Assembly (NCBI GenBank): GCA_008632985.1
Contig: QPGO01000069.1
Coordinates: forward strand, 62,001-126,000
From: Psammoneis japonica
Taxonomy: Eukaryota
Reading direction: 5' to 3'
DNA length: 64,000 bases
In this document: in pieces, positions 20,896 to 64,000 of the stretch
How positions within the stretch are numbered: the first letter of the stretch is position 1
Layout of the letters: every line of letters begins with the position of its first letter
The notes under the pieces: model-generated
Told to the model about the DNA's origin: nothing
Seen by the model: only the letters and a program-made list of their open reading frames with translations
Database searches by the model: none
Made by a program: the position numbers and the translations under genes

Positions 20896-20919
20896 TGGCC
20901 AACTAACGAGTCTAATCAG

Positions 20920-22075: not shown

Positions 22076-23107
22076 TTCTACAGAAGTTCCAGCATAAATC
22101 CCACACGTTTTATAGAGAGCTACCTACGTAGCTGGACGATTGCCGATTGTTCATAGATTTTTTAGGATAGTTGTTCACTCCTGCGGACGTCATGGGCCAT
22201 CACGCACGCACATCACGCAAATCTATTCAAACGGTTGCTTGCCATCCGGTCTGTACGTATGCCGTACAGTACGTATCGAATTTGTCTTCCGATATTTTGG
22301 AATTTTCGAGGCGGAGGAAACAGCAGGAAAACGAGAGCCTGTGGCCCGCCTGTTAGGGACCGGCTAAATGCGCTGTGCGCATTTTTGAGTTTTTGGGGCT
22401 CATTTTGCGCTAAATGCGCAAAAATGCGCTTGTACGTAGAAACGTACCAGGATTCTACGTGGTGTCACACCGAAACGTTGCAACCTGCTTGTGATGAGCT
22501 AGCAACTGCACAGAAGTAATTAGAAACAAGTGACAGCCATAAAACTCACTATTACATACATTTGCAGCTATTACCTACTCAAGCAAGTGATGGTCTTTGC
22601 CGTGCAGTCGTTCAAACATGAGGATCTCAAGAATCTCGTGCAGGGTCTGGCCACGGGCAATGGATTTGTGCGGTTACGGTTGGTGAAGCTCGAGGCAGCG
22701 CGCAGAACGCGCGCAGTTAGTGTTGGAGGGAGGCTGTGACGTCATCGATCAGTACTGTATCTACGCAGAAACACGTAGCCAGTTTCAGCGCATTTTTGTG
22801 CGCAAAACCTGGTTTCGACGAGCGCATTTAGCCGGTCCTTACCGCCTGTGGCCTGTGGCCTGTGGCTGCTTGACCATGATGGTCCTGTCCTGTCGTTACC
22901 CTGCTAGACCATTTCCAATCAACCTACGAGTAATCGGGTAGATTGCTCTTTGATACTCTCATAGAGAAGTGGTGGAGAGCCTGGAGGAAATCAGTTTGAA
23001 CGGTACCACAAGCTGCGACGCAGGACGCGCAAAGCATACCTACCTCACATCGTATTAGTGTTGGTACGGATTCAAAGCTTCTCAGCCTAGTCAGTGGTGG
23101 GATAGAA

Positions 23108-25121: not shown

Positions 25122-25262
25122 AGGTCAAAGTGCAATTTTGAAATTTTGAAACTCATGGCGCAAGATGAACACACCTTTGCACCAAATCAGAAAATGCAAC
25201 ATGTTGGTCATTTTTAGACAATGGCATCTTCGGACACGGGGGTCGAAATTGCACTTTGATCT
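25122..25262. repeat. Short inverted repeat pair (~20 bp arms)
   Basis: AGGTCAAAGTGCAATTTTGA (~25122-25141) versus TCGAAATTGCACTTTGATCT (~25243-25262; reverse complement AGATCAAAGTGCAATTTCGA). Confidence 0.7.
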
Positions 25263-27679: not shown

Positions 27680-28449
27680 GACCCTGTCCAAACTGGACCA
27701 TGCCCACATGCATGCCTGATGTCATGGAGCCAAAAATGAGCCTCTTTGAAAAAGTCCGTGGTTGTTGGCCCTGTGCATGACATGATTTGGGCCGTGCATG
27801 CTTTGGTGAGGAAGGCTCCTTGAAAACATCATGCCCCAAACACCATGCCCCCCAAGTTGACACACGAGATGACCCAGAAGTGGCTTTTTAGATGCAACAA
27901 AAGTGCACATGGCTGCATCTTGTCCCCCCAGAACAACCCACAAACCTTCTGACACATGAAGCACTTGCTGTGTTTGGGGCACTTCATGCGCCATTCTTGT
28001 CTCATCATGATGCAGCATCTTTCCTGAACATTCTCTCAATCAATCCATGGCAGACACTCCTCATGCAGCAAAGTTGTTCACACATGAGTTGTGCACAAGT
28101 TTAACGCTGTGATTGATTTTCATCATTTGCTTGGCTTGTTGTCACCTTGCAGCTGTGTTCTCATCATCATGGTGGCACTGCTCTCATTGTGTGTTTTTTT
28201 GTTCTGTTTCATTCCAGCTTCATTGATGCAGCTGGCTTGGCACCCTGCTTGAATGATCAGCCTGCATCAGTGACAAAATGTGTGAAGTTGGGTTTGCACT
28301 GTGTGTTTGTGTGTGGATGAAGTGGGGACATGCGCAAAAGTGTGTGATGCAGTTTGGAAAGCACTGCACATGTGTGACCCTGTGATGTCTGAAAAAAGGC
28401 TTTGCAATGTCAGGCATGCACATGGGTGTGGTCCAGTTTGGACAGGGTC
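27680..28449. mobile_element. Non-autonomous TIR element (PIF/Harbinger/Tourist-like MITE), ~770 bp
   Basis: Terminal inverted repeats of ~45 bp begin GACCCTGTCCAAACTGGACCA at both ends. The flanks TGA (27677-27679) and CAA (28450-28452) can both derive from a TAA target-site duplication. Confidence 0.7.
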
Positions 28450-28673
28450 CAATGTTCTCTGAGCAGCCCCACAGGAATCCACGGGCTTCCACCACTGGTG
28501 CCCATGCCCCCAAACAGGCCAGAGACATTTTGCCATCTGAGTTTTGGGAAACACAGTGTTTCATTTGATGCAGCAGGCTTTCTTTGAAGCTGCATTGCTG
28601 GATCCTCTGTCTTGTGTTTGAAGGTTCCAAATGCTTTTGTTGCATCTTTTTCAATGAAGGTGCTGACATTCAA

Positions 28674-28674
<1 letters not shown>

Positions 28675-28706
<32 letters not shown>

Positions 28707-28707
28707 C
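28675..28707. repeat. (AAC)n microsatellite
   Basis: About 11 perfect AAC units. Confidence 0.95.
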
Positions 28708-29083
28708 CATGAGCAGTGCCAAAAGTGCTGATCCTTCCATGGGCTTAAAGTGAGTTGTCATGTGCCATGCTGCAGTCAGCATCAAGTGCAGTTGGCAGTC
28801 AATGTGTGCCACTTGCAAGCTTGTTTTTCCTTGCTGTTGTTTCTTCTTCACACTTGCATCCTTGCACAGCAGCATGGATCTCGTCATTGACAGCCAGCTC
28901 CATGAGTGAGGAGAGTCCCTTTGACAAGGCCATGCGTGCCAATCTGCATGAAGGCAACATTGTCTGTGCACAGGGTGAGTGCATGTGGCTTCACATTCAT
29001 TTGATTCATCCCTTGATTCAATCCATGTCCTCCACCTGCACTGCTGACATGACCATTCCAACTCATTCATTGGGTCAAATCAG

Positions 29084-29456
29084 NNNNNNNNNNNNNNNNN
29101 NNNNNNNNNNNNNNNNNNNNNNNNNNNNNNNNNNNNNNNNNNNNNNNNNNNNNNNNNNNNNNNNNNNNNNNNNNNNNNNNNNNNNNNNNNNNNNNNNNNN
29201 NNNNNNNNNNNNNNNNNNNNNNNNNNNNNNNNNNNNNNNNNNNNNNNNNNNNNNNNNNNNNNNNNNNNNNNNNNNNNNNNNNNNNNNNNNNNNNNNNNNN
29301 NNNNNNNNNNNNNNNNNNNNNNNNNNNNNNNNNNNNNNNNNNNNNNNNNNNNNNNNNNNNNNNNNNNNNNNNNNNNNNNNNNNNNNNNNNNNNNNNNNNN
29401 NNNNNNNNNNNNNNNNNNNNNNNNNNNNNNNNNNNNNNNNNNNNNNNNNNNNNNNN
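29084..29456. other. Assembly gap (N run)
   Basis: Run of Ns. Confidence 1.
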
Positions 29457-30026
29457 TCAGATCCATTCTCACCACTGAGGGATGGGAAGATTGCAAGAAA
29501 TCAGCACGCATGCCAAATGCCAAGGTTCAAAAGCAATTGAGGCATTGAGCAATTGAGGCATTGTGCACCCAAGGTGCATGAAGCAGCCTTTGTCTTGCTC
29601 ACCTTTGCTCAGCAGGACATGTTTGGTGACAAGCAACTGGCTGGACTCACAGAGCACACACGCTGGCTCTTTCTGTCTCTCAAGAGAATCTGCAGCATGT
29701 GTGTGCCCAAGCCAGAGCATTTGCCAGAACTTCATGAAACCCTTGATGACGCTGATGCCACATTTGCTGGGAGCTGCTGAGCAAGGTCATTTTGGATTAG
29801 AGCTTCCCTGGGACATGACGCTTCTTTGTTTTTTTGTGTGCAGCCACAGCACCTGGCCACTGTGGCTGCTTCTGCCAGCATGAAGTTGCTCCCAGCCAGG
29901 CCACTGGCAGGTTGCTCCTGCTGGTGGCTTGAGATGATCACACATCACAGCAGTTGCCAGGCCCCAGCTGCAGAAACCCAAGCAACAGATGGCGCTGAGC
30001 AGGGACATTGGCACGGAAGAAGATTG

Positions 30027-30490
30027 CACTTGGGGTGTGTTTTGACTGATCGCTCGTTGTCATCCCTTTGTGCTGTGGTGGTGTCAATTCACTCTCAAGA
30101 GCCAGAGAAATGCAATGCAGGCACAACTCTGTTCCAATCAATGATGTCATGCATGCACATTTCACCAGTTCCCAAAATCTCTCTGCCACACATTGTGGCA
30201 CCCCAGCACCACTCCCCTGTCACTCAATTTTTTGCTCTTTCCTTTTCTCCAAAAATGCAATCAAGGCAATGGCATTGAAGAATGTCTCACTTGGGGTGTG
30301 ACATGACTGATTCCTTTGCTTGGTGGTGTCTTTTTGTCCTGGCATCAGTTCACACCCAAGAGCTGGAGAAATGCACTGCAGGTGCAAACACACTTTGATC
30401 CATGATGTCGTGTGTGCTCATTTTACCTTGTCAACAAATCTCTCTGCCAAAGATTGTGGTGCCTCAAGAACAGCACTCCCCTCTCATCCA
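30027..30490. repeat. Diverged ~260 bp tandem duplication inside the TE block
   Basis: CACTTGGGGTGTG...TGACTGAT...CAAGAGC..GAGAAATGCA.TGCAGG...ATGATGTC...AAATCTCTCTGCCA...CACTCCCCT at ~30027 and ~30288. Confidence 0.8.
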
Positions 30491-31397
30491 AGTTTGTTCC
30501 ATGTCATTGTCACTGTCACTGTCTTGAGTCAATGTGCCTGAAAAAGTCCTTTGGCATCACTGGCGCCACAATGACCCCAAATTGAAAGTCTTGCTTGTGG
30601 CTCCCACAAACTTTCTTGTGAATCTTGTCAGCCTCGTGTGCCAGGATGGGTGTGGATTTCACTGCTTGACAAACACAAATCAACAAGGTGGCAATGTTTT
30701 GAGTGGCCTCGTCCTGCTCCTGTGTTTGCAGGATGCCAACAGCAGCAGGGTTGGTGTTGTCTTCAGTCTCATGCTCCACTTCTTTTTCTGATTTCTTCTT
30801 TTTCAGTTCTTGCTTGTGCACTTGCAATTGCTTCTGGCTGGGCTTCCTTCCACAGATGCTTTTCCTCATCCAACACCACCAGTTCCACCATGCTGAGACT
30901 CAATCCCTCCTGCCTGGTGGCACAATTCAGCTCATGCAGCTGCTTGGTTCTGAGCAGACACTGTTGCTTTTGCTTCTCCTTTTTCTTGAAACAATGCTTG
31001 GCTGCTTCTTGTTTTTCCAATTGCTTTTGTTCTTCAAGTTGTCTCTCTGCATGACAGTCTCATGCTCGAGACACATGTCTCTTGCACTTGCTGAGCACCT
31101 GCCACCATGGCTTGATGAGCAGAAACTCAACATGGGCTGCCTCAACAGCCTTGGTCTTGCCTTTGTTGTCAGCAGAATTCCACTGCAGCTTGGCTTGAAG
31201 CTGTTTGAGTGCCTGCACATGATGAGACCAAGCCACCGTGGCAAGCACACTTGTCCCAACAACAACAAAGAACTGTTCCAACCATCCAATTGATTTTGTG
31301 TTTGTCAACATCATCTTGAAAAGTGTCCTTGCACAATGCTTGGACTGGAGCCTTGGATGGAACCTTGGCTTCAATGGGGCATTCTACAAGTGGTCGT

Positions 31398-31423
31398 GCA
31401 GCAGCAGCAGCAGCAGCAGCAGC
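31398..31423. repeat. (GCA)n microsatellite
   Basis: About 8-9 GCA units. Confidence 0.9.
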
Positions 31424-32294
31424 AAGCAGTGGGCAGTGCAGATGTTTTGGGATGCTTTTTGAGAGTTGACATGGGTGACTGCAACTGCAGCAACATCAAG
31501 GAAATTGGATGCTTCCTCAACAGTGTGCGAGTTGCAAAAAAAAACATTGCAATGTCAGCAGTGTGAGCCAGGGCATCATTGTCATTGTGGCTGACTCTGA
31601 TGTTTTGTGGCTTGTTTTTGCCTGAAGTGCCAATGCCACCACAGTCAATGGCCCATCAGTCATCTGCCAAAAAAGGTCCATGGAAGTGACATGCAAGCAA
31701 TGGAGGATGATGCAAAGCAGGTGTCCCTGATGGAGGTGTGCCAATTTTTCCACGACCACTGGCCATTGGACAAAGTGAGAGCCAGCTGGTTCTAACAGCA
31801 TTGTTGGTCACTTCAGGGGAAAATCAGAAGGTGTCCTAATCTCCCGCGCAAGTTTCTTACATTGGGTGTCCAGTGAAAGCTTGGTGGGGCTGATGAAGTT
31901 CCACCAACTTTTAAAAGTGAACGCTTGTTGTGATGTCTGAGCTCAAAGTCATTTTGATGTGAGAGTGGTGCATTGTAGAATCTTTTTTTGAGCAATGGCA
32001 TTGCCCTTGAAGGGAATCCTTGTTGTGATGTCTTCACCAAAAGTCATTTTGACCTGAGAATGACCATGCACAGAACCTTCCTTTAAGCAATGTGTTTTGT
32101 CACTTGACAAACCAACAAAACTTCCTTGAGCAAAAAAGCCCAATGAAGGGATTGTGTGAACCTGCTCAGTGGCACACAAGTCATGGATTTGTGTGGAGCG
32201 CATGTGTGTGATGTTCAAATTGTTGTGTTCCTGAGATGTGCGTGCAAACAACTTGAGCCTTCTCATTGTTGGAGTTGTGGATGTCAATCATCTG

Positions 32295-32625
32295 TTGTTT
32301 TAAAGTTGTCCCAAGATCTGCTGGCTCAGGCATCAAGCCAGCTTCATTGCCACTTTGGTGGTTCAGGACTGCAGTCACCCTGAGCTCTTGCCTCTGAGTG
32401 TGGTCCATTGTGAAAACTGGTCAAAAACAACTGCAAAACATGCTCTGGTTGTTGGAGTCACTGTCTTGCTTTTGGATTGCAAAGCATTGCAAGTTTGGTC
32501 TCTTGTTCTAAAGTTGTCCCAAGAGCTGCTGGCTTGGCATCAGGCCAGCTTCTTCATTGGCACTTCTCAGTGGTTTTTGCTGCAGTCATGCTGAGTTGTT
32601 GCCTTTGAGTGAAGTCCATTGCCAA
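32295..32625. repeat. Diverged direct repeat (~115 bp, ~210 bp spacing)
   Basis: AAAGTTGTCCCAAGA.CTGCTGGCT..GGCATCA.GCCAGCTTC...CTGCAGTCA..CTGAG...GTCCATTG at ~32302 and ~32510. Confidence 0.8.
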
Positions 32626-34269
32626 GCTGGTCAGAGACAACAGCAAGACTTCAAACAGTTTCAAAAATGGGGCTTGGCACTCCATGACTTGGCGATGCTC
32701 CACCTCCTCAATTTCCGTCAGAACAAGAATGACCAGATTTGGTGATTCAAGAAAACAAAGGCACCACTCAAGTTCAAACCCAAGGACATCAAGCAACATG
32801 GATTTCTCTTGAAAAAGCAGAAGATGGGGTCTGTTGTGACACTGGAGGCAGCAGGAGCAAGGACTTGTTTTTGTCAAGACATGGACAAATGAACCGCACA
32901 GCTAAAATCCTCATTCTCATCATGGGAAGCTTGACAAAGTGGCAAAAGAACAAGGTGTTTGTGTTGCCAGAGCAAAAGAGATGTGTGTCTGCCCCAGCAG
33001 TTTAGTGTGCAATGACCATGAAAACAATTTTTGGCACAATTGTTTCGCACCCCCCATTTGTCCAAGCTGGCATGAAGGATGTGGTTGACAACATGTTGAA
33101 GAAGTCTCATTTGGAAGATGCTGGTCATGGTCGATGAGGCAGTGTGCTGCTGCGCAAATGGCAAACATGCTTTGCAAAACACATGGTCAAGTGAAGATGG
33201 AGCAACAGAACCTCAGGTCAAAAGGGGCTCATTGGGCAGAAGCAGCACATGGAAAATGATGTGTTGCATGTCTGACATGCTTTGCAATTGAGCAAGAGAG
33301 CTGCTGCTCCCGGATGAGATGAGGTGCCATTTGCTGTGGACAAACAGTGGTCACTGAGTCCACACACAAACACATGGCAAATCCAGGGTTGTTGCAGGAA
33401 AAATCTGCAGATGACAACAACCTTGATCCTGATCCCCAGTTGTGCCCACTGATCAAGGTTGTTGGTGTGTGACCAACACAGGTTGACATGTTGTCTTTCA
33501 TTGACATCAACAAGCACCAGCACACAAATCCTGTTTCATCTCTGGGAAAATCGGTGTCTTTGGGATGTCATGGAAAGTGTCTCAAGTTGAGCTCTGTCTC
33601 AAGTTGAGCTCTGGGTGCACACCATGGGTGCCATTGCCAACAGCTGCTTCTTTGGTGCCTTGTGCACTGCTGCACTGGCTTGTCAAAGAACCAAATGACA
33701 TGTGACCAACAAAATGTTGCACCACACCTGTTGGCTCAAACTTGTGCCACTTTCAACTTTCAACTCCCGAGCTGGGGTGCCAATCTGGAAAACAACTTGT
33801 GGAGCATTCAAGTGAAGTGCAAAAAGAGCAAAAAGTTGATTCCCCGGTCAATTTTCCATGTCAGCTGAACTCAATTTCACTGCAGTCTCTCCAAACAAAT
33901 TGCAGCCACTAGATGGATGCACAGCCAACAATGGTGAGGCAGATTTTGTTGGTGGAGTGCATGGAGCTGGCCCTCCCTTTGGCAACATTGCTGCCAGAGC
34001 ATTGGGTTGAGGGTCAACAATCCCTGCCAGCTGCCAAGGAAAATGACCAGGCAAGGATCAGCAGCTGCACCTGGAAGATCTTAAAATTCACCTGTGCCCA
34101 ACAACTTTGCTTCCCCACATTCTTTCACATTCATGACGTGATGTCTGGCCATCTTAACTTTAATCTGCATCTTCATTCACGTTTGTCCCTTCCTTTTTTC
34201 CATCATCCACCATCGCATCCACTGCCCCCCCTCCTCTTTCCCTCCACACATCTGAGAGACCGCGCCCTC

Positions 34270-34480
34270 TATCTCGACGCCAGACCTGCTGTACTCTACT
34301 TCTACTCTACTAGCAGGCCTACCTACCAGGCCAGGCCAGGCCAGGCCAGGCCAGGCATTCGACTCACTCATACAGTACGTTCTAGCTAGAATCATCCCTG
34401 TTCTAGCTACTAGAGTAGAGAGAGAATGCCTTAGCTATTGTTGTTCACTCTAGAGCTCCAAAATTCATTTATCTAGAGAA
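34270..34480. repeat. CTAC/TAGAG low-complexity tract with (CCAGG)n array
   Basis: CTCTACTTCTACTCTACTAG, about six CCAGG units at ~34326-34355, and CTAGCTACTAGAGTAGAGAGAG. Confidence 0.8.
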
Positions 34481-50049: not shown

Positions 50050-53000
50050 CTACCCAAGTTTCTGAATGGTGTCCAGAGGCTGGTGAGAGCAGGAGCTTCC
50101 CCACTGTGCACCGCGTGGAAGCTGGACCTTGACTCTGAGCCCATTGTTGCTCCGGTGATTGCTCCACTCCACTAAAGGAATGAATTGCACACCACGATTT
50201 TGGTGGCACAGGACCATGCCTGGCAAGAATTCTTCCAGTTCAACATGTCAACAAACAGATTGCAAGACCAAACTGTTCCAAGTTTTGCTGAAATGAAAGA
50301 GCAGCTGACAAGAACCCACAATTGTCACAATGCACAAACATCCTGAACAAGACTCATGACATGATTTTCCACATGATGTGCACTCTGCATCAGATTTGCC
50401 AAGACCAGCCCAGCTGACAAGGGCATTTTCCCACCCAGAGGAGCACTGGAGACAAAAGCAACAAGCACCACCTTTCCCCCCACTCAGCTTCAAGCATGTG
50501 GCTCATAGATGGGAAATGCAGGAAACTGTGAATGTGCTGCATGCCATGGCACCCCAAGTTCAGGTGTGCCTCCCAATGCAGTGAGCTGTGCCCAGCCCTC
50601 TTCACATGCCACAAATGACTCAAGACCAGCTCTTGCAAGATCAGGTGGCTGGAGAAAAAATGCAAAGACCATGATGATCACAACCTCGGCTCACCTCTGT
50701 GCAGTTGAAGGATTGGCTCAAGCTTCATCACAAGGAGCACTTGGCAGTGACTGGAGACTCAACGGACTGCCAAGAAACAAAGTTCCTGGAAAAACAAGCA
50801 GAGCAAACAGCAAAAGCAAAAAAACTTTGTGGCAGAGATTCAAATGAGCAATGGGAAGAATCAAAAGATCAAAACTGCTGGGCAAATGAGACCTCTGGCA
50901 AGCCACCCAGAAAAGTGCGCAGTTGTCTGTTGAAGCAGCAAGAGGGTGGGGCTGAAAAGATTTCTGACAAGGAGGCTGCAATGGACATGACAGCAAAGCA
51001 CTCCAAAAATGTCTGCATCAAACAACTGGTGCAGACTTCATGCAACAACCTCTGGCAAACAATGTCCAGTTTCTTGGTGTGGGTCCACCTTTGGAACAAG
51101 CAATGCTGGGTGGCACTCTTGTGCCCCGCCTTTGTCTGCCATGCAATGCACAAGGGAGCACTTTGCTCATCATCTGGCTTGCCCAGCCAATGCTCCTTCA
51201 TCTCCACCACTGCAGATTGTTGCCAAAGAGCATGTCCAGTCTTGGGGCTGGGTCAAAGAAAAAGATTGAAGATCTGTGTGGGACCATCTGTCTTCCACTC
51301 AGTGCACTTTCAGGCGGCAAACTTTGACAAGGCTCTCTCTCATGTGGGTGCCATCACAGCGAACTTTCCATGTGTTGCCAGACATTCTCCCAAGTGCTGG
51401 CAGCAGCAGGGCGGGGATTTTCTCATTCCAGACAAAGAAGCGCACAAACACACAGACTTGGTTTGGCTGATCCCATGTGCTTTGAAGTCAATGCCAATGA
51501 CAACAACAACAACAACAAGATTCTGGGGCAAAAATGACAAAACATGCAGAGGCTTGGCAGTCAGTTGCAGTGGACAGGAGAAGTGAGCAACAAGGGAGTT
51601 GCAAGGACACTCTGCAGAAGAGCAGGCACTGAACAAAATGCCCGCATTTGACCCAATTTGAGTGGAGCAGATTTCAGTGGTCATGATGCAGCACAGTTGA
51701 CCTGTGGCTTGGCTGCAATCTTGTTGTCCACTCTTGTGCATTGCCAAGAATGAGAAGCAAAGGAGCCTCAGAGCCACCTGTTGATTTTTCCACTTCCAAC
51801 AGATGCACCGCACATCAAAAACTGTCTGTGGCTGACCAAAGCAGTCCTTTGGGTCACTGCAGGGGGCCTCTTTGCAGTTGCCTGTCAACCAGACAACTTT
51901 GACCCACCACCAGATGACAAGCTGCCACAGGGCCTTTGACAACAAGGAAACAGCAATAAATCACAGACATGAAGCCCCTTGAAATGAAAGCATGCTGTGG
52001 AACATGGCACAGCACCCTGACCTCATCAGCAGGGGTGAGCTCCACCTTGTTGGTTTTGCCTTCTTCCTTGTCAACAATGGCAATCCTCCTTGCCAACCTG
52101 GGTGGGGACTGCCAATGATGCCCAGACAGGACAGAGCCCATTTGCAGGTGGGGTGCATGTTGTGGGTGGAGACACTGGGCTGGACAAATGCTGGTGGTGT
52201 CTCATTGAATTTGAGTGAGAAAAGGGATGTTGGTGGCATGTCAACAACAATGATGTTGACCCTGATGATGCAGGCCAAACACACACAAGTGTTGAACACA
52301 AGAGCAGCATCAGGAGCTTGTGGCTTGCACCTGATGGCAACTGCAGCAAAAAAGCAAAAGAGCTGTGCTGCCCAGCAGAAGGACACCGGGCTGGTCAGGC
52401 ACGATCATGTGGCAACTCTCTTGCAGCCTCTGATGCCTGCTGGCCAGCACTTGTGCAATGAGCATGGAAGACAATGGACAATCCTCTGGTCATGCTCACC
52501 CTGTCGGGGAGCAAGAACAATGCAAACAGGTCAAAGTGCCAGCCCCATTCTGGGAGCTGCCACAAGCTGGGCTGTGTGTGCTCTCCAAGAACCAACATGC
52601 CTGCAAGGCCTGGGCTTTGAGCCCATCTTGTTTGCCATGTTTTGCAAGCACATTGAAGTGCTTGTTGATCATGGCAAATGCAGCTCAGCAACTGTGGAGC
52701 TCTTCAAGACACTTCTCAAAAACCACAAGCTTGAAATTGGTGTGAGCAACCTTTTCAGTCAGCGGCATTCTTGTGACTGAGTTGTGGGCCACCCACACAT
52801 GAAAGTTCCTTTTGATGATGATTCCATTTGTGCCAGGGAGGGCACCCTGTCTCCACATCTGTCCAGGGAGAACAATGTCTTTCTCTCATTCTTTGCTGAA
52901 GATGGGTTTTGGGGTGCATGGCTGGAAGCTGGAAGCTCTCAGTTGATGTTCTTGTGCATTTCTTTGAGCCACTGCTCTAACAGACATCACATCAAGTGAA

Positions 53001-54555
53001 AGCAAAACAATTCTTGAAGACATCTGGAAGTTCAAGCAGAGTCCTGCCTTCTCATCACTTCATGTCTGACAAAAAACTCAAACCTGGTTTTAACTGCTCC
53101 TGGGCAGCCAACACAATCACTGCTTGGGAGTGCCAAGCATGGAGACTTGGCACAGGTGCACCCCTGCAGGCTTGACACAAGATGTTCTTGTGAACTCAGG
53201 TCACCATCCAGCCATGCACTCAAGTGTTTGACATCACAGAGTGTGACAATGTCTGCAGCCCTCCCTCCCATTGTTGTGCTCAACAGGATGAGGAGGAGGC
53301 CAAGGCACCTCAAAGAGACCCATCAAAAAGCTCGCTTCTTCAAGTCATTTTTTTGTTTGCACTTCATTGCTGCAGCTGCACTGGGGACCTGCTTGTGCTT
53401 CCTTGGAAACTGACAGTCAACATTGCAGCTGTGAAGCAGCCTGTGCCAGGGACTTGTCAGGTGGGGGTTTGGCTTGGACACAACTGATGGCATTGTGGCA
53501 TTGCTCCTCAGCAGCAAGTCAAGTTGAGGTGTCTGTGGGTTTCTCATTTTTTCCTTTTGGGTGCCAGTCTTTGACATTTCTCCATGGAGTTTTGTGACAA
53601 CACTTGTGTGTTGTTGCACTCACAACTGATGGTCTCACAATTTCAGCACTTTTTTTGCTTCGAAGTTTGACCATGCAGGCCAAAACCTGCCTGCCCCCAA
53701 AAAAGTCTGCAACACATGGGTGCGGGCAACAAACGTGCAGCCATTCCTGGCCATCATGTCTCTTCTTGCACAAGAAGTGTGGCACACATGTGTGGGCACT
53801 TGCTGTGCCAGCACAAATTGGAAGCTGGTGGAAATGACAAACAAAGCATGTGCAAAGTGAGCCTGTTCTTGGACTTGATCATGTGGCCCAGTTGCTGCAG
53901 TGCCAGTGGCCAGATGTTGTTCTGTGCCCACTGACCTGGAAAGAACTCATGGCTGCTTGCTGGTTGGGGGTCAGTTGATTTGACTTGGCTTGGTTGTGTG
54001 GATAACTCACTCATCAGCCACAATTGTTGAGAGCACAGCATGCCAGTGTGTGATGACCCTCATGATGCTCAACACAGACTTGGCACCAAAGTGGTGTGGG
54101 GAGACTTTTTCTCCTCTCACACCACAGGGCCAACCGCCACATGCTTTGAGTCTCGTGCACACCTTCTGCTTAGAAGGAGATTGACCTTCTCCCAGTGCTC
54201 TGCTTGCATGCAAAACTTGGGAATCCAACAAAAACAGACTTGGGTTTTCCAAGTTGGGCTCAGGAACAGGTGCAGATGAAGATGATTTGGGTCACAAAAA
54301 GGGCTGGATTTTGGGCCAAGGACTGGAGCATGGTTGAGCACAAATTTGCTTGGTGTTTGTCACCAGCTCATTGCTTGCAGACTTTTTGAGATGACAGTTG
54401 GCTGGCTCAGCCAAAGTTGCACACACCTGCTGCAAGGGTGCCAGTGGCCGGGCTTGAAAGGAGAAGGCATCTGAGTCAAGGAGAAATGACAGGCACTCCA
54501 AAGACTGTGGTTGAGGAGCTGGCCAGGAAGGAAAAATGGGGCTGGCAAATCAATT
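50050..54555. mobile_element. Decayed TE relic block, TpA/CpG-depleted (family not identifiable)
   Basis: About 4.5 kb with only a handful of TA dinucleotides, scarce CG and Tyr-free spurious ORFs in all frames. Confidence 0.65.
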
Positions 54556-54898
54556 GTTGGTTTATGCGTAATTTCTACACATAAATACCTGATATACATA
54601 TAGAGTACCAAAATACTACCAAATTACATAGTAACGGCCGTTAACGGTTTTTAGAATTACTTAGGGCCACCCACACTCGAGCAGTGGGAGTCCGGGAGTT
54701 CGGATACTGTACTCGCCTTGTTTGCTGTGAGCTGTGATGACCGAATTTGAGAATTCCAGAATGCTAAAGTGGACGAGCCGACGAGGCGGGTTGAACAATG
54801 GCCAAGAACGACCCACAGCTTGTCGTGTGGCCTTCTCGTCGGGCTACGTACCGGTAGTTGTTGTTGCTGGGAATAAGGCCCAAAGCAAAGTAGGAACC

Positions 54899-56679
54899 AT
54901 GGTATCACTAGAAGAAAGAGAATTGCTAGTTGCAGTGGCGTGCAACAGGGAGGAAGAAGTTGGCGTTCTTCTCGATCGTGGTGTCGACGTCGACGCGAAA
55001 GACGATAGAGGCGAAACGTCGCTGTTCAAAGCCAGCTGCAAAGGAAACGAGCCGATCGTTCTGATGCTGTTGACGCAAGGAGCGGACGTTGATCTTACCA
55101 CCGTCAGCGGCCGGACGCCTCTCATGATTGCGTCTCATTGTGGACACGCAAAGATTGTCCGTCTTTTGCTGAATGCTGGGGCTGACACGGATCTGGAGGA
55201 CAGCTGTGGAGATACGGCTATCAACGATGCCGATTCAATAGGCCGTCACGATATCGTCAAAATGTTGAAAGAGGCTCGAGAACAACGTCGTGTAGCTCCC
55301 CTGTTTTATGAAGATATCAATAAGATTGCGGAGCTCTTGGAAGAATCGTCCGACGATGATGAAGTAATAGCCATTGTGCCATTGTTGCGCAAAGCCTGTG
55401 AAGACATGTCCGACTTTCTTCAGCTCAAGTACTTCTTTACAGCCGTAAATTCGCAATATCGTCTCCGTACCATCGATTCGAAAGATCGAGAGTCCTTAAT
55501 CCGCGATTCTCTACAAAAGTCATGTGGGTGGTGCACATCAGCGGGTCATGTGGCGGTGTATGTAGTAGCCCTGCAATACGCTCTGTCTCAGGGTATTATC
55601 GTTTTTACTGACTACACTTTCTTGGAAACGAAAGCTCGTGAAAATAGTATAGCGGAGACAGACTACATACAGGCCATGCATGCCATGATCCAACAGAACA
55701 CCATGCGGATTGACCGTGTGGAACATCACTTGGTCTCCTTTCAAAAGGCAGTTGAGAATCTCGAACAGAATGTCAAGAATATCCATAGCGACGTGTGTCG
55801 CATGTCCGCTGCTATCGAGATAGTTGATGCCAACACACAGACTGTGGCCGGCGCATTAACGGATTTAATCGCCGGCATCCGGTTCAACAATCGAGTTAAG
55901 GCAGGATTCAGTATCGTTTCTGCTGCTTTGAATGCCGTGTCATGGGGAGTTGCCGGCAGTGCTCTTCAGGGCATCCTGGATCTGACTGTGGCTAACATCG
56001 CTGACTTCAGTGACCTGCAGCATCTCCTCAAAGTTGGGAAAATGTTGCCCAACAATACATTGGAAACGGTGGGGAGCGTTTCCGTCGAGGACATGCTAGA
56101 GACGGGAATTCAACTTGCCGAAGATCGCCTTGCCAATTACAATCTCGATGAAGCTTTGCTAGAGGGGAATTCCATTGTCATGATTGCAGCTTCGGCCAAG
56201 ATGTTTTCGAATGCTCTGAAATTGAGTGGACTTGGCGCACCGGAGACATCTGTAGCACAACTTCCGACTTTGCTGCAGAGACCATCGAACAGCCAACGGG
56301 ATCTCCAAGATTCGCGATTGAGCGTCCGAGGCATTCCGATGAGGGCATTCCACCTGAGAATACCGATGGTGCTCTCGAAATGAAACTAGCAAAGCTAGAG
56401 AATGAACTGAAGCGGTGCATTGAAAATGCACAGATGTTCCGGAAAAATGACTTTGATATCGACAATATCAAGGAAGAGATTCAACAGATCGATGGGGAGC
56501 TCGAGGAGCTCTACGAATTAAGCGAAAGAAAAATGTGTCTAGACAAAAAACTCAAGCGCCGAAGCAAAGCGGCAGAGTTGGCTCACGAGCTTGGCTACCC
56601 CGTTGCCCCTATCTTGAATGAGATCGAGCAGGTCAAGGGGAAGATCGCAGAGCTAGATAAAGAAATTGGGAGCATCTGA
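54899..56679 (+). CDS. Ankyrin-repeat protein with central coiled coil, hydrophobic helices and C-terminal coiled coil; apparent frameshift ~56290-56380
   Basis: ANK repeats (DDRGETSLFKA, VSGRTPLMIA, SCGDTAINDA) and a heptad region. ORF 56380-56679 appears to continue the protein in another frame. Confidence 0.75.
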
Positions 56680-56915
56680 GTTGCTTCGTTCTTGCGACGT
56701 CGGGTGTAGGATCGGACATGGCACAGTATTGTGAAAAATCAATAACAACAACGTCAGACAAGTCAAAGGATTCATACTACTATCCACTTTTGCATTCATG
56801 CCACTGGCAGAACACACGCTCTAATACAATGCTAAAGTAAAGGGCCGACGTGGCTCGTCTATTCTGACTGTAATCGGCCTTACCTCCCCGAACCATATGG
56901 TAAGGGTTGAGGCGG

Positions 56916-58886
56916 CTAGTCGATTCTGATTGTGGTCGACCTTACCTCCCCATCCTGCCGACTAACCTCCACACGGATGTCAGTGCCGAACGTAAACGAA
57001 ACTGCAAATTTATCGCCATACTTGCACGGGATCTCAATAGTTCCAATCTGTTTGCAATCAGACTCCGTAGTTCGTTTGGGATTGTAACTTTCAGACCGAT
57101 AGACGGGGAACCCCACTCTTTCTTGATCCTCGTAGGCCGGACTGAAGTCAATGGCATCGAACTTCTGAAAGGGGTCAACGGAAACGCCTTTTTTGACAAT
57201 GCTGGAGAAACAGTTCAGGACCGTCAACTCTCGCTTCCGCTTGTTCCACTCGGCCTCTTCTCTTGAAAACCTGCCCCCCTCTTTCCACCTGTTCGTCGTT
57301 CTGATTCCATATGTGTACTTTGTTTTTCGCTGTCCAATGACCGACGTGCTCAGGCCAAAGTAGGCCGCTCCAGTCACAACGGCAGCTTGAGGCCGCAACG
57401 ATCCCCCGCTGGCAAGGTCCACGATGGTCTTGTTGAACGGAGCACTTCCAAACTCACTCCTGACCCGATGTACCAGAACTTTGCTCGATCCGTAGCCCCC
57501 AACAATTGTCAAGTACTTGACTGCCTGGTTATTGTTCAGAAGATCCCTCACACATGTGCAGATCCCCTTGAGAGTTGGCTCGAAGAACTCCATCATCTGG
57601 TCTCGGGAAAAGAACAGGATGTTCCGGTCACGAATTTTCTTCTGGATACGGCTCGATGACAAGTCAAACGGGGCTCTAGTCTTATATTGAGCATTGTACT
57701 GTTCCACCAGCCTGAGAAGATCAGGTATCTCTAGGGCCTCTGCCGCACCATCGCTAAACAGAGCACCAATGCAAATCTCTGTCATAGCATTCTCGTTCAT
57801 TGGATCAAATTGGATCTTTGCCGTGCGAAATTCGTCCATGAGGTCAGACGCTTCGACGGAGTGGACGCTTTTGAGTATTTCAAACTTGTCCTTGCCGATA
57901 AGACGGCTCAGAAAAAGATTGAACTGTTCGTCAACGTAGATACCACCCCATTTCCCGCCAGTAGGAGGTGCAGCTTCATCCAATCTGAGAGGGTGCTCCG
58001 TTGCTACCTTGTGCATGGTGAAGTCTGCTGTCCCACCTCCTATATCCAGATTCAAGAACGTAGTGCCCTTACCGAAGAGGTTGTACTTCTTCGATTCTGT
58101 GTGGACTGCAATCGAAGCCGACTCCGGCTCCAGGGCCAGAAGCAGTTGAGCCGAGCTCTCATCTTTGATCATTCCGGCGTTGAATGCCGCCTTACGCATG
58201 AAAGCTTTCCCAAAGTCATTCCAAATGGCTGGAACGGTCAGAACCCAAAGAACTTGACTCGGTTTGATAAGCTTAGCTCCCAACCAACCGACCTTGATTT
58301 GTTCGAGGGCGTATCCGGAAAGATGTTGAAGCGTCTTGGTCATCAGATCTAGCAGACTGTGCGGCTCCTCCATGGTCGACTTGGCCATGATAGTTTTAGC
58401 GCCCTTGACCTTGTCTTTCAATTCCATCTTGTAGTTTCGAAAGAGCGCACAACCTTTGCTCTTCAGTGTGTCCGTGACAGACTCGTCTTCGCCAATTTCG
58501 CGATTGGTTTTTTCCACCAGTTCCTTGTACTTGTCCTCTGCGAACTTCCCGAACAACCAGCTATCATCAGGGCAACGAAGGAGAACAGTGGGGGTCTTTG
58601 TTTTGTCCATTGTATTCTCGGCCCCGGGGGCACCACATTTCACACTGCTCGGGTTATCGGGAGACACAATGGCCGTGCCCGAATAAGTGGTGCCAAGGTC
58701 GATGCCGACAACAACCTTGTATTTTGGGTCAATCTTCAACTTGCCTACATAGGTAGCGGTGAACTGATGCATAGGCCTCTCAGGCTCCATCACTGACATC
58801 GCGGAGAACTGTCCTTTCAACATAACTTTTCTGGGCTGGCTTATTCTTATATCATTGAGATCGAGATCTTGTAGTTTTTGTTGCAC
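56916..58886 (-). CDS. Atypical Hsp70 (HSPA12-like), intronless; start uncertain
   Basis: VVVGIDLGTTYSG, WVLTVPAIWNDFGKAFMRKAA, LALEPESAS, DIGGGTADFT, WGGIYVD, IVGGYGSS, AVVTGAA and KYTYGI. No EEVD or ER-retention tail. Confidence 0.88.
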   Translation of the reverse strand: MQQKLQDLDLNDIRISQPRKVMLKGQFSAMSVMEPERPMHQFTATYVGKLKIDPKYKVVVGIDLGTTYSGTAIVSPDNPSSVKCGAPGAENTMDKTKTPTVLLRCPDDSWLFGKFAEDKYKELVEKTNREIGEDESVTDTLKSKGCALFRNYKMELKDKVKGAKTIMAKSTMEEPHSLLDLMTKTLQHLSGYALEQIKVGWLGAKLIKPSQVLWVLTVPAIWNDFGKAFMRKAAFNAGMIKDESSAQLLLALEPESASIAVHTESKKYNLFGKGTTFLNLDIGGGTADFTMHKVATEHPLRLDEAAPPTGGKWGGIYVDEQFNLFLSRLIGKDKFEILKSVHSVEASDLMDEFRTAKIQFDPMNENAMTEICIGALFSDGAAEALEIPDLLRLVEQYNAQYKTRAPFDLSSSRIQKKIRDRNILFFSRDQMMEFFEPTLKGICTCVRDLLNNNQAVKYLTIVGGYGSSKVLVHRVRSEFGSAPFNKTIVDLASGGSLRPQAAVVTGAAYFGLSTSVIGQRKTKYTYGIRTTNRWKEGGRFSREEAEWNKRKRELTVLNCFSSIVKKGVSVDPFQKFDAIDFSPAYEDQERVGFPVYRSESYNPKRTTESDCKQIGTIEIPCKYGDKFAVSFTFGTDIRVEVSRQDGEVRSTTIRID

Positions 58887-59252
58887 GTATGAGGTCTTGG
58901 AACGACGAGAGGGCTTGGGTTGTTCTTTGTATGGTTTTATTATTTGCTATTGTGGGTTCGGATCAACGAGGAGAGCTTGGATATTGTTCTTTGCTTCGCT
59001 TCTGGGTTCGGATTCGACCATCAAACTCCGCTCATAAGTTTTGAAGATTCACGTCAGCATGAACTATCAACTAAAGTATATTTGTACGCAACACTGGTTA
59101 AAGAATCATTAAACAGTGTAGACCCATCAGTGTGACTTGTAACGTCATCGCACTTTAATCCGAACCAACTTTGAGAATCCGAGGAGATTTCCCAAGGATT
59201 TCCAGCACTTCACGGTTTTGGCAACTGTCACAAAGAGAGAGTCAATCACAGG

Positions 59253-60884
59253 AATGAATGGACTACGCCAATTGTTTGGGCATTATCACAGTGGTGAAGA
59301 GGAAGAGACAGAAGTTGACGCAACCATGGCACCCCCACCTAGAGAAGGAAATTATGATGTCGGAGAGCTAAATCGTCGGCTCAAAGACACAGAAAATCGA
59401 CTTAATCTCTTCGTGAGTCGTGTTGTCAACTTCTCTAAACATGTAGATAACCAAATCGTCAAACTGCTCGAAGACCAAGGCTTCGATTTTGAGACGAAAC
59501 AGCAAGCTCCTGGTGAGACCCGTGTATCTCAACAGAATGGAAGCCTGAATGATATCGGAGCTCTCGACCGTCGGCTCGAGGCCACAGAAAATCTACTTGG
59601 TCTCTTGATGAGTGATATTGTCAGCTACTCTGAAAAACACGGAGATAACCAGATCTCCAAATTGCTCAAAGAACAAGGCTTGGATGTTGAGGCGAAACAG
59701 CAAAATCCTCGTGAAGCTCCTGTATCTCAGCATGATAGAAGCCTTATGATGAATCGTCGGCTCGAAGACACAGAAAATCGACTGAATCTCTTGATTAATT
59801 TTTTTGGAGTAGGAGGGGCTACCTCGTCAGACAAGAAGTTGGTAAGTCAGCTGAAACGAGATAAAAAGGCACTGATCAAGAGAAAGAAAGAGCTAGAAAG
59901 TTGGTGTGAGCGAGATGAACGTCGAATCCGCGAATTCAGCGAAGAAAACCACATTTTAAGGCAAGAGCTGAGCAACGCCACGCAGCGCACAGTCGACGCT
60001 GACGAAGTGCGAGACAAGCCCAAGAGCGAGCATCTCGTGCTAAAGAAGCTAAGGAAGAAGCCATTGCTCGCCTTACCCAAGCTCACGAGGCTGCAGAACG
60101 AGCTACCGAACGCGCAAACTATGCCGAAGAAGTCGAGCAGCGTATGCGCCAGATTTATGAATCATCCGTTGTCAATCGCGGGGATGTGGCCACCAACTCG
60201 TCTGCCTTCCCGACTGGGGATCAGATCCTTTCCAATGTTCGAAGTAGTGCGAAATGCGCCGAGGATTTCCTTTATGACTTGGTTGAACTTCGGGGGGAGG
60301 AAGACGGTAATAGGAAAACCACAATCAAGGATTATTCGACCATCATCCAGGAAGTTCTGGTCCCAGCCGCTAAGTTCGCACATCACCAAGTTGACTCATA
60401 TGTGTCGAGCAAGGAGAGACAATTGGAGGCTTTGCTAGAAGGCAAAGACTGTCGCGATGCAGGGCTGGTCAAGCTCTTTATGGTATTCACCATGCAACGT
60501 TTGGTTTGCAGACGGCTGAATGAGGGTGCAACAGAAGCGCCCTTTGAAGCCCAAGGCACGAAGTCGGAGGTGCTCAGATGGGCCATGAGTGACAAGGTCA
60601 CCAATGACAAAAATATGGAAGGCAAGTCAATTGATAGTTTCATCCACGACTTGCGGAATCTGTACCTGCAGTGCCAATGCAGTGAGCCACCTTGTTATTT
60701 GCATCCCATGGTGGGCAAGGAGGTGAAATTCTCTCCCGAACACCACAGGCAGTGCTTCCATTTCTCCTCCAATGCAAAGCCTGGCGATGTCGTCTACGTC
60801 CTATATCCAGGAGTTTACTTTGGCGATCCCGGCAAGGCCAAGGACGGGCCTGTTTACAAGGCGCGAGTCTTACTGCTGAAGTAA
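59253..60884 (+). CDS. Coiled-coil protein with N-terminal repeats and a C-terminal GrpE/Mieap-like domain; apparent frameshift ~60005
   Basis: Frame correction joins ORF 59218-60438 (5' part) to 60144-60884 through RQAQERASRAKEAKEEAIARL. C-terminus: LYLQCQCSEPP..VGKEVKFSPEHH...GDVVYVLYPGVY...VYKARVLL*. Confidence 0.7.
59365..59800 (+). repeat. Intragenic ~190 bp repeat, about 2.3 copies
   Basis: LNRRLKDTENRLNL / LDRRLEATENLLGL / MNRRLEDTENRLNL. The following DNQI.KLL..QG.D.E.KQQ.P.E..VSQ occurs twice and is visible at DNA level. Confidence 0.9.
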
Positions 60885-60999
60885 TCGTGCTTGTCCATAA
60901 ATTAGTAGTACACGAATCTGTAGTTTTACTGTAGCACCGGCTCCGCATACGGTCAGCCATAGGAATGCTTCTAATTGACAAAGAATCTGCTGCACATGT

Positions 61000-62660
61000 C
61001 ACATGCTTAGCAAACAAGTGTTCAAGGAGTCAACCCCTGCTTTCGCGTAGGCTTGTTGCTTGCAACCTCATTGAAAAGAAACAGACTTCTTTGACATTTC
61101 ATTGTCGCAGAATTAATTGGGAAGTCTGACTCAGCATCATTCTTTTGCTTCATCATAACTTGTTTGTCATCCTCATCTGACAAGGAGGCTTGACACAGTG
61201 CCTGGAGCAAGAGTGAGATGAAGCACAAGAGGATCAGAGAATCAGTTTCCTGCCAAAACACAGACCATGCCTGAGACTCGGTGTTGCAAGATCATGTCTC
61301 TGTCCAGCTTTGCAACATCCATCCCTTCAAAAGATAAACAAAACAGTGGAACAGCAGCTGCAACCAAGGCTGTGTGTGTCAAGAGGCTGTGCCCTCCAAG
61401 CTGGCAACCAATTTCATTTCATCCTGTTCTTGTGTGATGTTGCAACTTGGGCCTCCTTTGCACTTTGGATCTGATCTGATCCACCACAAATTTTGCATTT
61501 GCACACTTGGCAACTTCCTCAACCAGAGCCTCTGGGGTGGCTGCAGCACTGAATGGACACCCCGGTTGCTTGACATGAGCTTCTTGAATTTGCAAGTGCA
61601 TTGATCACTGCACTCACTTGAGCTTGCTGAGCAAGGCATGCTGCAGGCCATCGCAATTCTGAGCTGCATGCACACTGTTCTGCACAGCTGTGTGCTGACA
61701 ATTTCTGTGTGGAATTTTGTGTGCATTTTGCACCAAACTTTTGTCACCATGACAACCTCTCCTCCGACACAGGCTGGCCCTGTCTGCCAGCACTTTTCCT
61801 CCCAGTTCTTTTAATGCCATTGGAGATGCTCTTCCCAGCCACTCCTGCCAGAGCTGGCAACAGCATTGCTCCCTGTTCTGGACACTTTTTCTTGAATGAA
61901 TCCAACATGTCTAAGGTGTTGGCCATGGGCTGCACAATGATGTTGCGACCCTTGCAGCAAAAGGCCTTGCAAGATCCTTTGGTCAACAAGGGGGCATCAG
62001 TTTTCTTTGACAGCAAAATGTTCTCACAGAAATCAACATGGCCAGCTTGGCATCTGGTTTGACTTGTTCTCAACATTCTGCTGTTCACATTGCATTGGCA
62101 GCAATGGTCATCAAAAGGCTGCATGCACTGTTGTCATCCATTGCCCCTGGACTTGCCTCACCTTCTTCAAGATTTGTGGTGCTGCTTTCATGAACAAAGC
62201 TTTGAAGGATGACTCCATTTTCATGTGGCAACATGATTGGGATGAAACACCATGGACATTGTGTGCAACTTGCAAATTGCAGTTAATTTGCCTGAGCACC
62301 ACTCCACTGACCTCCTTGCAAAATGCCTTTTCAAGCAGTTGTGCCTGATTGTCGTCAAGCAAATTGCCTGTCTGTCTCATTCCTCAGAAGGTCATGTCCC
62401 TGAAAGACAAATCTCTCTGTGTGCAAAAGTTGAGATGCAGTCTGCAGCTTGGTGGGGTGGACAAGACCTTGGAGGTTGGCAGCAATGCATGATGGCAACA
62501 GAGCAAACAGACGCTTTGATGAAAGTTGTTGTCCAAAAGTTGTGATGAGAAGTTTGTTGTCATTTTGAATCAATTTGTGGGCTTGGCCAAACAAGTTGCT
62601 GAAAAGAGCTGAGTCTGGGATGCAGTCGTGACATGCAACCACAATGACATTGAGTCATGA
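61000..62660. mobile_element. TpA-depleted repeat DNA, probably including the Copia 3' LTR
   Basis: Lies directly downstream (minus strand) of the Copia polypurine tract and shows the same dinucleotide signature. Confidence 0.5.
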
Positions 62661-64000
62661 CTCTCCCTCTCAACCAAGAGAGCTCACCAGCCCACAACAG
62701 CCTTTCCAGCTGTGTGGAACACATCAGTCCGCAGTCCCTTCGTGAACTGATTGGCTGGTTGCTCCAGAGTGCTGATGGGTTGGATGTTGATCTCCAATTG
62801 CTCAACTTTGGTCCTAAACCAGTGGTGTGGGATGCCGATGTGTTTGGTTCATGGAGACAACTTGGGCATGAATGCAAACTTGAGGCATGCAGAGTTGTCT
62901 TTGCACACAACGGACGCAGGTGGGACATTCTGCTCAACAGGCAAGTCATCGGTGCCTTGGTTTGCAAGCTCAAAAGCCTTGGAGTGAGTCATGATGGGGT
63001 TTTGGTGGTCAGACTTTCCAAACGCATGGTGGTTGAGCTCCTTGAGAACTTCATGAATGGGGATGAGATCACGCACAGCTTGAGAAAGTGCAACATGTTC
63101 CACTTCCACAGTCGACAATGCTGCAAGAGTCTGCAGCTTGGACACCCAGATGAGCGGGCAGCCGGCACAGCAAATGAGGCGTCCAGTCCTGGACTTGACA
63201 GAAACTGGGTCTTGACCATCTTCCACACCAAACAACCCCACGAAGTCAGAATTGACGCAACAATCAACTCAACAATCTTGTGCAGGCTTGAGAATGAGAC
63301 CTTCAGCAGCAGCAGCAGCAGCAGCTTTGAGGTGTCAGAGCATCTGCTTCACTGCAGCAGTGTGGAACACTCAGGGTGCAAACAAGAGTCAAGCTGCTTG
63401 ATGCATGGCATCCTTTGCTGCCAAGTGCATCAACATTCCAACAACTGAGCGACAATCGCAGGGTTCATCAAAAGGTGGGCCGTCCGTGTCAGCACCGAGA
63501 GGTGCAGGTAGAGCTGGAGCAGATGCTCCATTGCAATCCTCCATCTGTGCGGTGCGCAGGACCTTGTCAATCAGACCTGGTTGAGTGAGTGGAAATCGAC
63601 CCTTGGAGAGCTTTTCAATCTTGATGCTGAGAAAGTTGCCGACTTCTCCTTTGTCTCTTAGTTCAAATGTGCGGCGATGCTTGTTGTCAGAGACTCCTAA
63701 TTTGCGAATCTCCTCCTCCAGAGCTTCAGCTGACGCACCAGCGAAGACCGTGTCGTCGATGTGCACAACACACATCATGCCTTCCTTGACGCACAGGCAT
63801 GGGTCAATGGCTGAAGGCACCCATCCGTGCTCCATCAACCCGTCTCTCAACTTCTCATGGAAACCCTTGGGAGACTGTTTTAGGCCGTGTGGTCCTTTCA
63901 AAAGCTTGAGGACCATGTTGAGTCCCGACCTTGGTGCAAAACCCTTTGGCGGTGTTGTGTGAACTTCCTCGGCAATGTCAGCTTGACAGAAGGCTGTTGT
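62661..64000 (-). mobile_element. Mutated Ty1/Copia LTR retrotransposon: RT and RNase H region plus polypurine tract
   Basis: TAFCQADIAEEV, LKG(PH)GLKQSP, DPCL, VV(HI)DD, FLSIKI, LTQPGLID, RSVVGMLM, SRTG, WVSKLQT..ALST.EVEHVAL, DNSAC, TKHIGIP(H)HWFR and ANQFTKGL. PPT GGTTGAGAGGGAGAG at ~62660-62674. Confidence 0.93.

Follow-up and report, generated by a model that had tools for sequence, protein, structure and literature searches.

Sharply bounded blocks nearly devoid of TpA in a contig of the diatom Psammoneis japonica: probable fossils of TpA-specific hypermutation

The window analysed here is a stretch of 64,000 nucleotides from the diatom Psammoneis japonica (GenBank assembly GCA_008632985.1, contig QPGO01000069.1, positions 62,001 to 126,000 of the forward strand). 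It contains four blocks from which the dinucleotide TpA has been almost erased, the last of which includes the relic of a Copia-type retrotransposon. Observed/expected (o/e) dinucleotide ratios were scanned in 500-base windows, and change points were fitted separately for TA and CG. A preliminary description of this DNA had proposed a conversion of TpA into TpG and CpA between 62661 and 64000. TA loss in that interval is real, as 5 TA remain against ~51 expected from the background frequency of the window, but the interval was too small: the block that contains it starts at ~61157, and three more blocks lie in the window. The four blocks are the following.

20914-22078: block 1, TpA o/e 0.02 (2 TA in 1165 nt), CpG half depleted (o/e 0.44).
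25216-34081: block 2, TpA o/e 0.05, CpG o/e 0.17, interrupted by Ns at 29084-29456 and with four tandem duplications inside it.
50174-54562: block 3, TpA o/e 0.02 (6 TA in 4389 nt), CpG o/e 0.08, at single-copy depth and without Pfam match.
61157-64000: block 4, TpA o/e 0.05, CpG o/e 0.27, TpG o/e 1.77, CpA o/e 1.76, containing the Copia relic.

The blocks sum to 16,891 nt (16.9 kb) and hold 44 TA (frequency 0.0027), compared to ~638 expected from the background frequency of 0.0378. Pooled o/e ratios were 0.04 for TpA, 0.18 for CpG, 1.80 for TpG and 1.86 for CpA. From background to blocks, the frequency of CG fell from 0.0558 to 0.0104 while that of TG and CA together rose from 0.1439 to 0.2289. 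Because TA and CG each become TG or CA by a single transition, the sum of the four pyrimidine-purine (YpR) steps should remain unchanged, as was observed (0.2420 vs 0.2375, alike in blocks and background); the GC content of the blocks is 0.46-0.50, against 0.48 in the background. All seven block edges are sharp, with the TA and CG change points lying within 20-365 bp of one another at each of them, and the genes that adjoin the blocks are unaffected in their TA composition. TA is more fully lost than CpG, since block 1 and the Copia part of block 4 have CpG ratios of 0.4-0.56 and TpA ratios of 0.00-0.14. Other steps behave differently: ApA is not depleted (AA 1.26 and TT 1.20 in the blocks vs 1.18 and 1.19 in the whole window), and the o/e ratios of AG and TC are 1.02 and 0.95. 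TGA makes up 82-88% of the stop triplets within the blocks.

The relic in block 4 was recognized as the 3' part of a Ty1/Copia pol gene, in which an RVT_2-type reverse transcriptase (RT) is followed by an RNase H whose columns align with those of relatives. The window does not extend to its long terminal repeats (LTRs), gag and integrase. The translation of the RT piece matches RVT_2 with an E value of 1.3e-16 (61.4 bits against a Pfam cut-off of 31.6). The relic comprises these features.

62560-64000, minus strand: Copia-type pol relic, 3' part, running past the window end (Pfam RVT_2, reading frames, tblastn of 153 relatives, sequencing depth).
63389-64000, minus strand: C-terminal half of the RT (Pfam RVT_2).
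62849-63268 and 62684-62848, minus strand: RNase H pieces, in frames other than that of the RT.
63761-63763, minus strand: codon of the catalytic YxDD tyrosine, now CAC (His).
63961 (CAC), 63889 (CAC), 63454 (TGT), 63427 (CAC), 63334 (CAC), 63259 (TGC), 63181 (CGC), 63097 (CAT) and 62827 (CAC), minus strand: first bases, in window coordinates, of the other nine former Tyr codons.

The 203-residue RT piece contains no tyrosine at all, compared to a mean of 3.6% in 119 aligned relatives. Tyr columns of the RT and RNase H were then defined as those with Tyr in at least 40% of at least 15 relatives, using the 153 relatives aligned to the relic by tblastn. The ten former Tyr codons so defined, at which 41-95% of relatives have Tyr, now read CAC or CAT (7), TGT or TGC (2) and CGC (1), and none encodes Tyr. 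Hence all ten carry A:T>G:C transitions at TpA. The relic retained 0 of 7 strongly conserved Tyr columns compared to 117 of 152 non-Tyr ones (Fisher 6e-5). Of the six Tyr-to-His or Tyr-to-Cys motifs that had been proposed from the sequence alone, five hold: relatives have Tyr in 130 of 151 cases at YVDD (now HIDD), 124 of 132 at LYGLKQ (PHGLKQ), 66 of 117 at EEVY (EEVH), 92 of 113 at MLMY (MLMH) and 103 of 114 at the last position of YDY. At the first position of that motif, 74% of relatives have Trp rather than Tyr, and IPYHW is a weaker example, with Tyr in 24 of 58 relatives. A (CAG)n microsatellite at 63296-63332 separates the RT piece from those of the RNase H.

Among the relatives, three public Copia proteins were almost free of tyrosine, with His or Cys at conserved Tyr columns and choices that differ from protein to protein; P0074, P0101, P0088 and P0327 are the Tyr-less public proteins, and 6 of 216 Copia proteins of at least 300 residues contain less than 1% Tyr. 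A profile made from the three almost Tyr-free relatives revealed 33 loci in metagenome contigs, five of which have a 1-kb stretch with a TpA o/e below 0.15. These five are four distinct loci, as two of them, L002 and L003, are 99.93% identical and represent the same locus. No relative was found when viral contigs were scanned with the Tyr-less Copia profile.

L003 is a complete Copia element with 238-nt LTRs that differ at 18 sites, all by transitions. At 13 of these 18 sites, the 5' LTR has TA and the 3' LTR has TG (7) or CA (6), while no site shows the reverse (binomial 2.4e-4). A control pair of LTRs from the TA-normal locus L014 has 14 differences without such bias. Since the two LTRs of an element are identical at insertion, these changes arose in the chromosome, in agreement with the action at the DNA level that had been proposed for the window. 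The TA-poor domain of L003 extends from ~1500 to ~8125, spares the 5' LTR and the leader, and ends ~30 nt before the 3' end of the element; the flanks are TA-rich. A CTAG/TAGC-rich stretch flanks the element at 8159-8260.

Furthermore, the internal region of L003 tells the same story as the relic. Its 26 Tyr-majority columns now have Cys (11), His (8), Arg (1), Tyr (1) or another residue (5), while 397 of 472 conserved non-Tyr columns are retained. Tyr-codon homology in both elements thus bears out the direction from TpA to TpG or CpA, and both outcomes occur on one strand, with 7 CAY and 2 TGY codons on the sense strand of the relic and 8 His and 11 Cys in L003. Strand-coordinated runs of TG or CA were not significant in the L003 LTR (6 runs among the 13 events vs ~7.5 expected, by hand count).

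L003 also allowed us to separate the two losses. Its domain has a TpA o/e of 0.11 and an intact CpG o/e of 0.89; TA loss is therefore separable from CpG loss. Conversely, six Copia loci of other metagenomes (L025, L028, L030, L031, L032 and L033) combine CpG ratios of 0.23-0.44 with normal TpA (0.61-0.76), indicating that CpG commonly decays without TA erasure and that only some lineages have the TA process. These opposite combinations point to two processes. Among the Tyr-majority columns with Tyr, His, Cys or Arg today, conversion in L003 reached 20 of 21, along with 13 of 20 TA sites of the LTRs, while non-TA divergence of the LTRs is at most 5 in 238. We estimate from this that TA loss outpaces background substitution about a hundredfold (two orders of magnitude), and that it is also faster than CpG decay. 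Comparison of L009 with L011 (96.5% alike) was uninformative on timing, as both are TA-less and their 51 differences are mostly CpG-type or unclassified, with 4 at TA.

Evidence for mutation in place was also found within the window. In the four tandem-duplicate pairs of block 2, 18 of 73 adjacent double differences exchange CA and TG, compared to 1 of 39 in three pairs outside the blocks (Fisher 0.003). Such doubles are expected where ancestral TA or CG sites were resolved separately in each copy, which implies that the duplicates mutated independently in place. At the single-copy position 62126-62127, the window has CA and a contig of the public sequencing run has TG.

The signature had been described as confined to repeats. 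Copy number was estimated from the depth of the sequencing-run contigs at 90% likeness, where ~60 corresponds to a single copy and more distant relatives remain uncounted. By this measure, the Copia part of block 4 (depth 1700-3070) belongs to a family of ~30-50 copy equivalents. In contrast, block 3 (depth 33-80) and the left 1.3 kb of block 4 (61157-62456, depth ~60, without recognizable coding remnant) are at single-copy level, sequence comparison of the four blocks revealed no mutual similarity, and one stretch of about ten times single-copy depth is rich in TA. Confinement to repeats is therefore unsupported. The contrasting stretch is the following.

54564-54710: TA-rich stretch abutting block 3, not TA-depleted; the bin 54511-55011 has a depth of 588, ~10x single copy.

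In one run contig this stretch is missing, with 145 bases skipped at the joint; it looks like a young small mobile insertion that one form has and another lacks. Depth within block 3 is ~33 on several contigs compared to ~60 elsewhere, and 54058-54365 is covered by two alternative contigs of ~34 each, which suggests two haplotypes that diverge more within block 3 than in genes.

Homology searches returned little from the blocks beyond the relic. A Pfam scan covering 81 of 87 open reading frames (ORFs) of at least 90 residues gave no family at an E value of 0.01 except one sub-threshold match to DUF7042; the ORFs at 62654-63445 (plus), 62992-63348 (minus) and 63585-63959 (plus) were left out of the scans and three others were scanned separately. 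Read-through frames of the plus strand of block 3 matched no family, and tblastn of 270 Copia proteins found just two weak matches outside the relic (E 0.006 and 0.009).

We observed that the surviving TA sites have a flank preference. After strand symmetrization, the 5' neighbour is a pyrimidine at 72 of 88 positions in the window blocks, compared to 1572 of 3544 at background TA, and the TG and CA of these blocks have neighbours unlike those of surviving TA (chi-square 1e-8). The same holds for L003 (62 of 74). Sites of the form Y-TA-R (pyrimidine-TA-purine) are relatively protected or, in deaminase terms, TAT and TAC are converted more readily than TAG and TAA.

CTAG/TAGC-rich stretches of low complexity, similar to that of L003, were seen at 20770-20900 and 34375-34430, adjoining TA-erased blocks or a few hundred bases from them. 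GCTACTAG has exact matches at 20844 and 34406; these two matches compare with 0.28 expected in the window, and 3 of 100 shuffles reach two.

The substituted bases were checked against the contigs of the public sequencing run, which reproduced the blocks with few or no differences: none occur in the 2379 bases of a contig over 51077-53455, and nine in the 7642 bases of another over 54817-62456. Contigs of this run are up to 315 kb long, indicating that its reads are accurate. At 56273, run contigs have one base more than the window, and the frame of an H+-pyrophosphatase gene jumps between two overlapping ORFs at 2125-2327, with too little room for an ordinary intron; small indel errors in the assembly may be responsible.

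Besides the H+-pyrophosphatase, the genes beside the blocks encode an N-acetylglutamate synthase/kinase, a uroporphyrinogen-III synthase and a DUF819 protein, mostly as long uninterrupted ORFs. The named best matches of a 661-residue ORF at 5431-7416 are all from diatoms (53-69% identity), which assigns the window to a diatom rather than to Bigelowiella. A 676-residue ORF at 56916-58946 (minus) weakly resembles Hsp70 in its N-terminal part (E 1.7e-4, narrowly missing the Pfam cut-off), an ORF at 60003-60884 (plus) has a weak MIEAP-like match (E 0.0045), and a coiled-coil-like ORF with internal repeats lies between them (59354-59795).

In our view, the blocks are likely the fossil end state of a hypermutation that is specific for TpA, turns A:T into G:C and acts on silenced mobile or foreign DNA in the chromosomes of the diatom nucleus; it would be of the same kind as that found in Bigelowiella natans. 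In mutation-accumulation lines of this chlorarachniophyte, two integrated viral regions are reported to mutate at ~1000x the genome rate, with 230 of 231 de novo changes being A>G or T>C and falling without exception on TpA (bioRxiv 10.64898/2026.01.13.699255, 2026-04-14). The same preprint describes a subgroup of 324 coding sequences (CDS) with a TpA frequency of 0.0018, enriched in reverse-transcriptase and DDE domains, and its authors propose an ADAT2-like adenine deaminase as a candidate enzyme. The preliminary statement that no pathway of this kind was characterized is consequently outdated, as the same signature has been measured there (10.64898/2026.01.13.699255).

The data show that TA is converted to TG or CA after integration, with both outcomes on one strand and within sharply bounded domains; in the diatom, the substrate would be silenced mobile or foreign DNA. 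We infer an enzymatic deamination of adenine to hypoxanthine in 5'-TA-3' of either DNA strand, the hypoxanthine probably being read as G at the next replication. Targeting would track the silencing state and not copy number. Separately, these domains of the window have lost CpG, as expected from the CG methylation by which diatom transposons are marked. In Phaeodactylum tricornutum, transposons are reported as the main targets of CG methylation (PMC9998398), which accounts for the CpG loss in the blocks. A broader proposal, which we regard as possible though short of probable, is that diatoms and chlorarachniophytes share a silencing-coupled defence, in which a DNA adenine deaminase with a 5'-TAY-3' preference would clear TpA from newly silenced transposons and integrated viruses in a short span of evolution, as a chemical mirror image of fungal repeat-induced point mutation (RIP), many unannotatable "TGCA-rich" intergenic blocks of algal genomes being its fossils.

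Several observations weigh against interpreting the blocks as hypermutated mobile DNA of this genome. A mobile origin was shown for block 4 and L003 only, and blocks 1-3 are mobile DNA by inference. Copies of the window's Copia family share the TA-less state: among the eleven differing places listed in 62588-64000, beyond which 64 further places exist, two have TA in the reads (62588 and 63591) and six are CpG-type. As the copies were already TA-less, hypermutation must be older than the spread of this family; mobilization in trans or segmental duplication are our guesses for how TA-less copies came to be shared. The run that supports the bases may be the assembly's own source. The LTR evidence is from another organism's contig rather than from this genome and, taken alone, the differences between the LTRs would also allow the opposite direction, an RIP-like gain of TA in the 5' LTR. 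The 3' LTR, however, continues an internal region whose Tyr columns are lost, which gives TA loss as the direction; the polarity of the Tyr codons alone decides this.

The closest competitor to adenine deamination takes thymine as the target. A TET/JBP-type dioxygenase would oxidize T in TpA to 5-hydroxymethyluracil (5hmU) or 5-formyluracil (5fU) in silenced chromatin; both bases mispair with G, giving T>C, and the sequence outcomes would be identical. The same or a related enzyme acting on 5-methylcytosine (5mC) in CpG would explain the joint loss of two palindromic YpR steps, in line with TA and CG change points that agree within 20-365 bp at the seven edges. A precedent exists in dinoflagellates, where 5hmU made by a TET/JBP homologue is reported to replace T preferentially in TA and TC and to help silence transposons (PMC11572971). 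The separable losses in L003 (TpA lost with CpG at 0.89) and the absence of a TC effect in the blocks (o/e 0.95) speak against this route, which we judge unlikely. Error-prone patch repair, in which excision at methylated or deaminated cytosines is followed by resynthesis with a pol-eta-like polymerase that mutates A in WA (A preceded by A or T), would likewise tie the mutation of TpA to methylated chromatin, a coupling that the coinciding edges suggest, and it restores CpG, so that TA could disappear before CpG. Since pol eta prefers WA motifs, the undepleted ApA of the blocks (AA 1.26, TT 1.20) fits poorly with this candidate of the preliminary description, as does the report that all B. natans hypermutations are at TpA (10.64898/2026.01.13.699255), and we hold it to be very unlikely.

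Still less probable is editing before integration, either as ADAR-like A-to-I conversion of retrotransposon RNA or as deamination of cDNA. One block is a retroelement, and ADARs are described as favouring U before the edited A (10.64898/2026.01.13.699255). However, the sense strand carries TG and CA outcomes in both elements, the LTRs of L003 differ from each other, and TAG is among the surviving sites. This last point runs contrary to the preference of ADAR for a 3' G. Furthermore, the B. natans targets are integrated DNA viruses that mutate in real time (10.64898/2026.01.13.699255). ADAR-type hyperediting, for which sense-only A>G changes and like LTRs were expected, was rejected as neither was found. 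We give equally little credence to the absence of any hypermutation, with the composition being selected (avoidance of CpG and UpA in RNA, or a foreign DNA composition) or arising as an assembly or base-calling artefact at modified bases. CpG and UpA are both suppressed in RNA viruses and many mRNAs (PMC3829696), yet selection would not strip a catalytic Tyr, nor keep 0 of 7 conserved Tyr columns with 77% of the others. As for an artefact, run contigs of up to 315 kb reproduce the blocks and metagenome assemblies of other projects share the pattern.

The adenine-targeted process favoured above is of a kind first described in 2026 in another lineage, and is thus already known, just barely. What is new here is that a diatom has it and that the metagenome LTR element L003 bears this signature as well, together with the coincidence with CpG-depleted blocks, the separability from CpG decay and the flank preference; a literature search found no report of TpA hypermutation in diatoms, of its overlap with CpG-depleted blocks or of Y-TA-R protection. 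If one process acts in two distant lineages of the SAR supergroup, TpA hypermutation would be a general algal genome defence rather than the curiosity of one strain. TA erasure explains how old mobile DNA escapes homology-based annotation, the tested ORFs and frames of blocks 1-3 having no significant Pfam match. It shifts block composition toward GC, opposite to the usual mutational bias, and the loss of TAA and TAG stops along with all Tyr codons creates long spurious ORFs. A natural adenine deaminase of chromosomal DNA would be of interest for base editing. As CRISPR knock-out of DNMT5a has been reported in P. tricornutum (PMC9998398), knock-outs are possible in at least one diatom, and the responsible enzyme could become findable.

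The diatom blocks were compared with known systems. They resemble the work of animal APOBEC3 and ADAR in being a mutational inactivation of retroelements, probably of deaminase type, with ADAR also having a 5' U or T before the edited A. The substrates of APOBEC3 and ADAR are cDNA or RNA, and the resulting G>A or A>G changes are confined to one strand, unlike the blocks, in which both strands changed after integration. Fungal RIP likewise inactivates mobile elements by hypermutating chromosomal DNA through transitions, in sharp domains. RIP changes C:G to T:A mostly at CpA and creates TpA (PMC2621366), whereas the blocks lose TpA (o/e 0.04), have a CpA o/e of 1.86 and are unchanged in GC; RIP also needs duplicated sequence, and block 3 is at single-copy depth. 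Decay of CpG by 5mC deamination matches the CpG ratios of 0.08-0.44 with TpG and CpA excess, but cannot remove TpA, which the blocks lose too. Composition, codon outcomes and LTR differences hence agree with the preliminary description in setting aside RIP, CpG decay alone and ADAR editing of retro-RNA. Dinoflagellate 5hmU, in another SAR alga, shares the TA preference and the link to transposon silencing through a modification of T; it is described as an epigenetic mark (PMC11572971), not as a reported mutational process.

The system of B. natans differs in its host, a chlorarachniophyte rather than a diatom, and in being observed live, while the near-saturated transposon relics described here were read from sequence alone. 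TA loss in the window coincides with CpG depletion, and CpG goes unmentioned in the main text of the preprint (10.64898/2026.01.13.699255). Y-TA-R protection was seen here, and the preprint text has no occurrence of diatoms, "flanking", "context" or "trinucleotide". In both, however, TpA is converted to TpG or CpA on both strands, in discrete regions that are non-host DNA in B. natans (integrated DNA of nucleocytoplasmic large DNA viruses (NCLDV) and virophages) and probably in the diatom, and at a rate far above that of the genome, by estimate in the present case, leaving TpA frequencies of 0.0018 in the B. natans CDS subgroup and 0.0027 in the window blocks.

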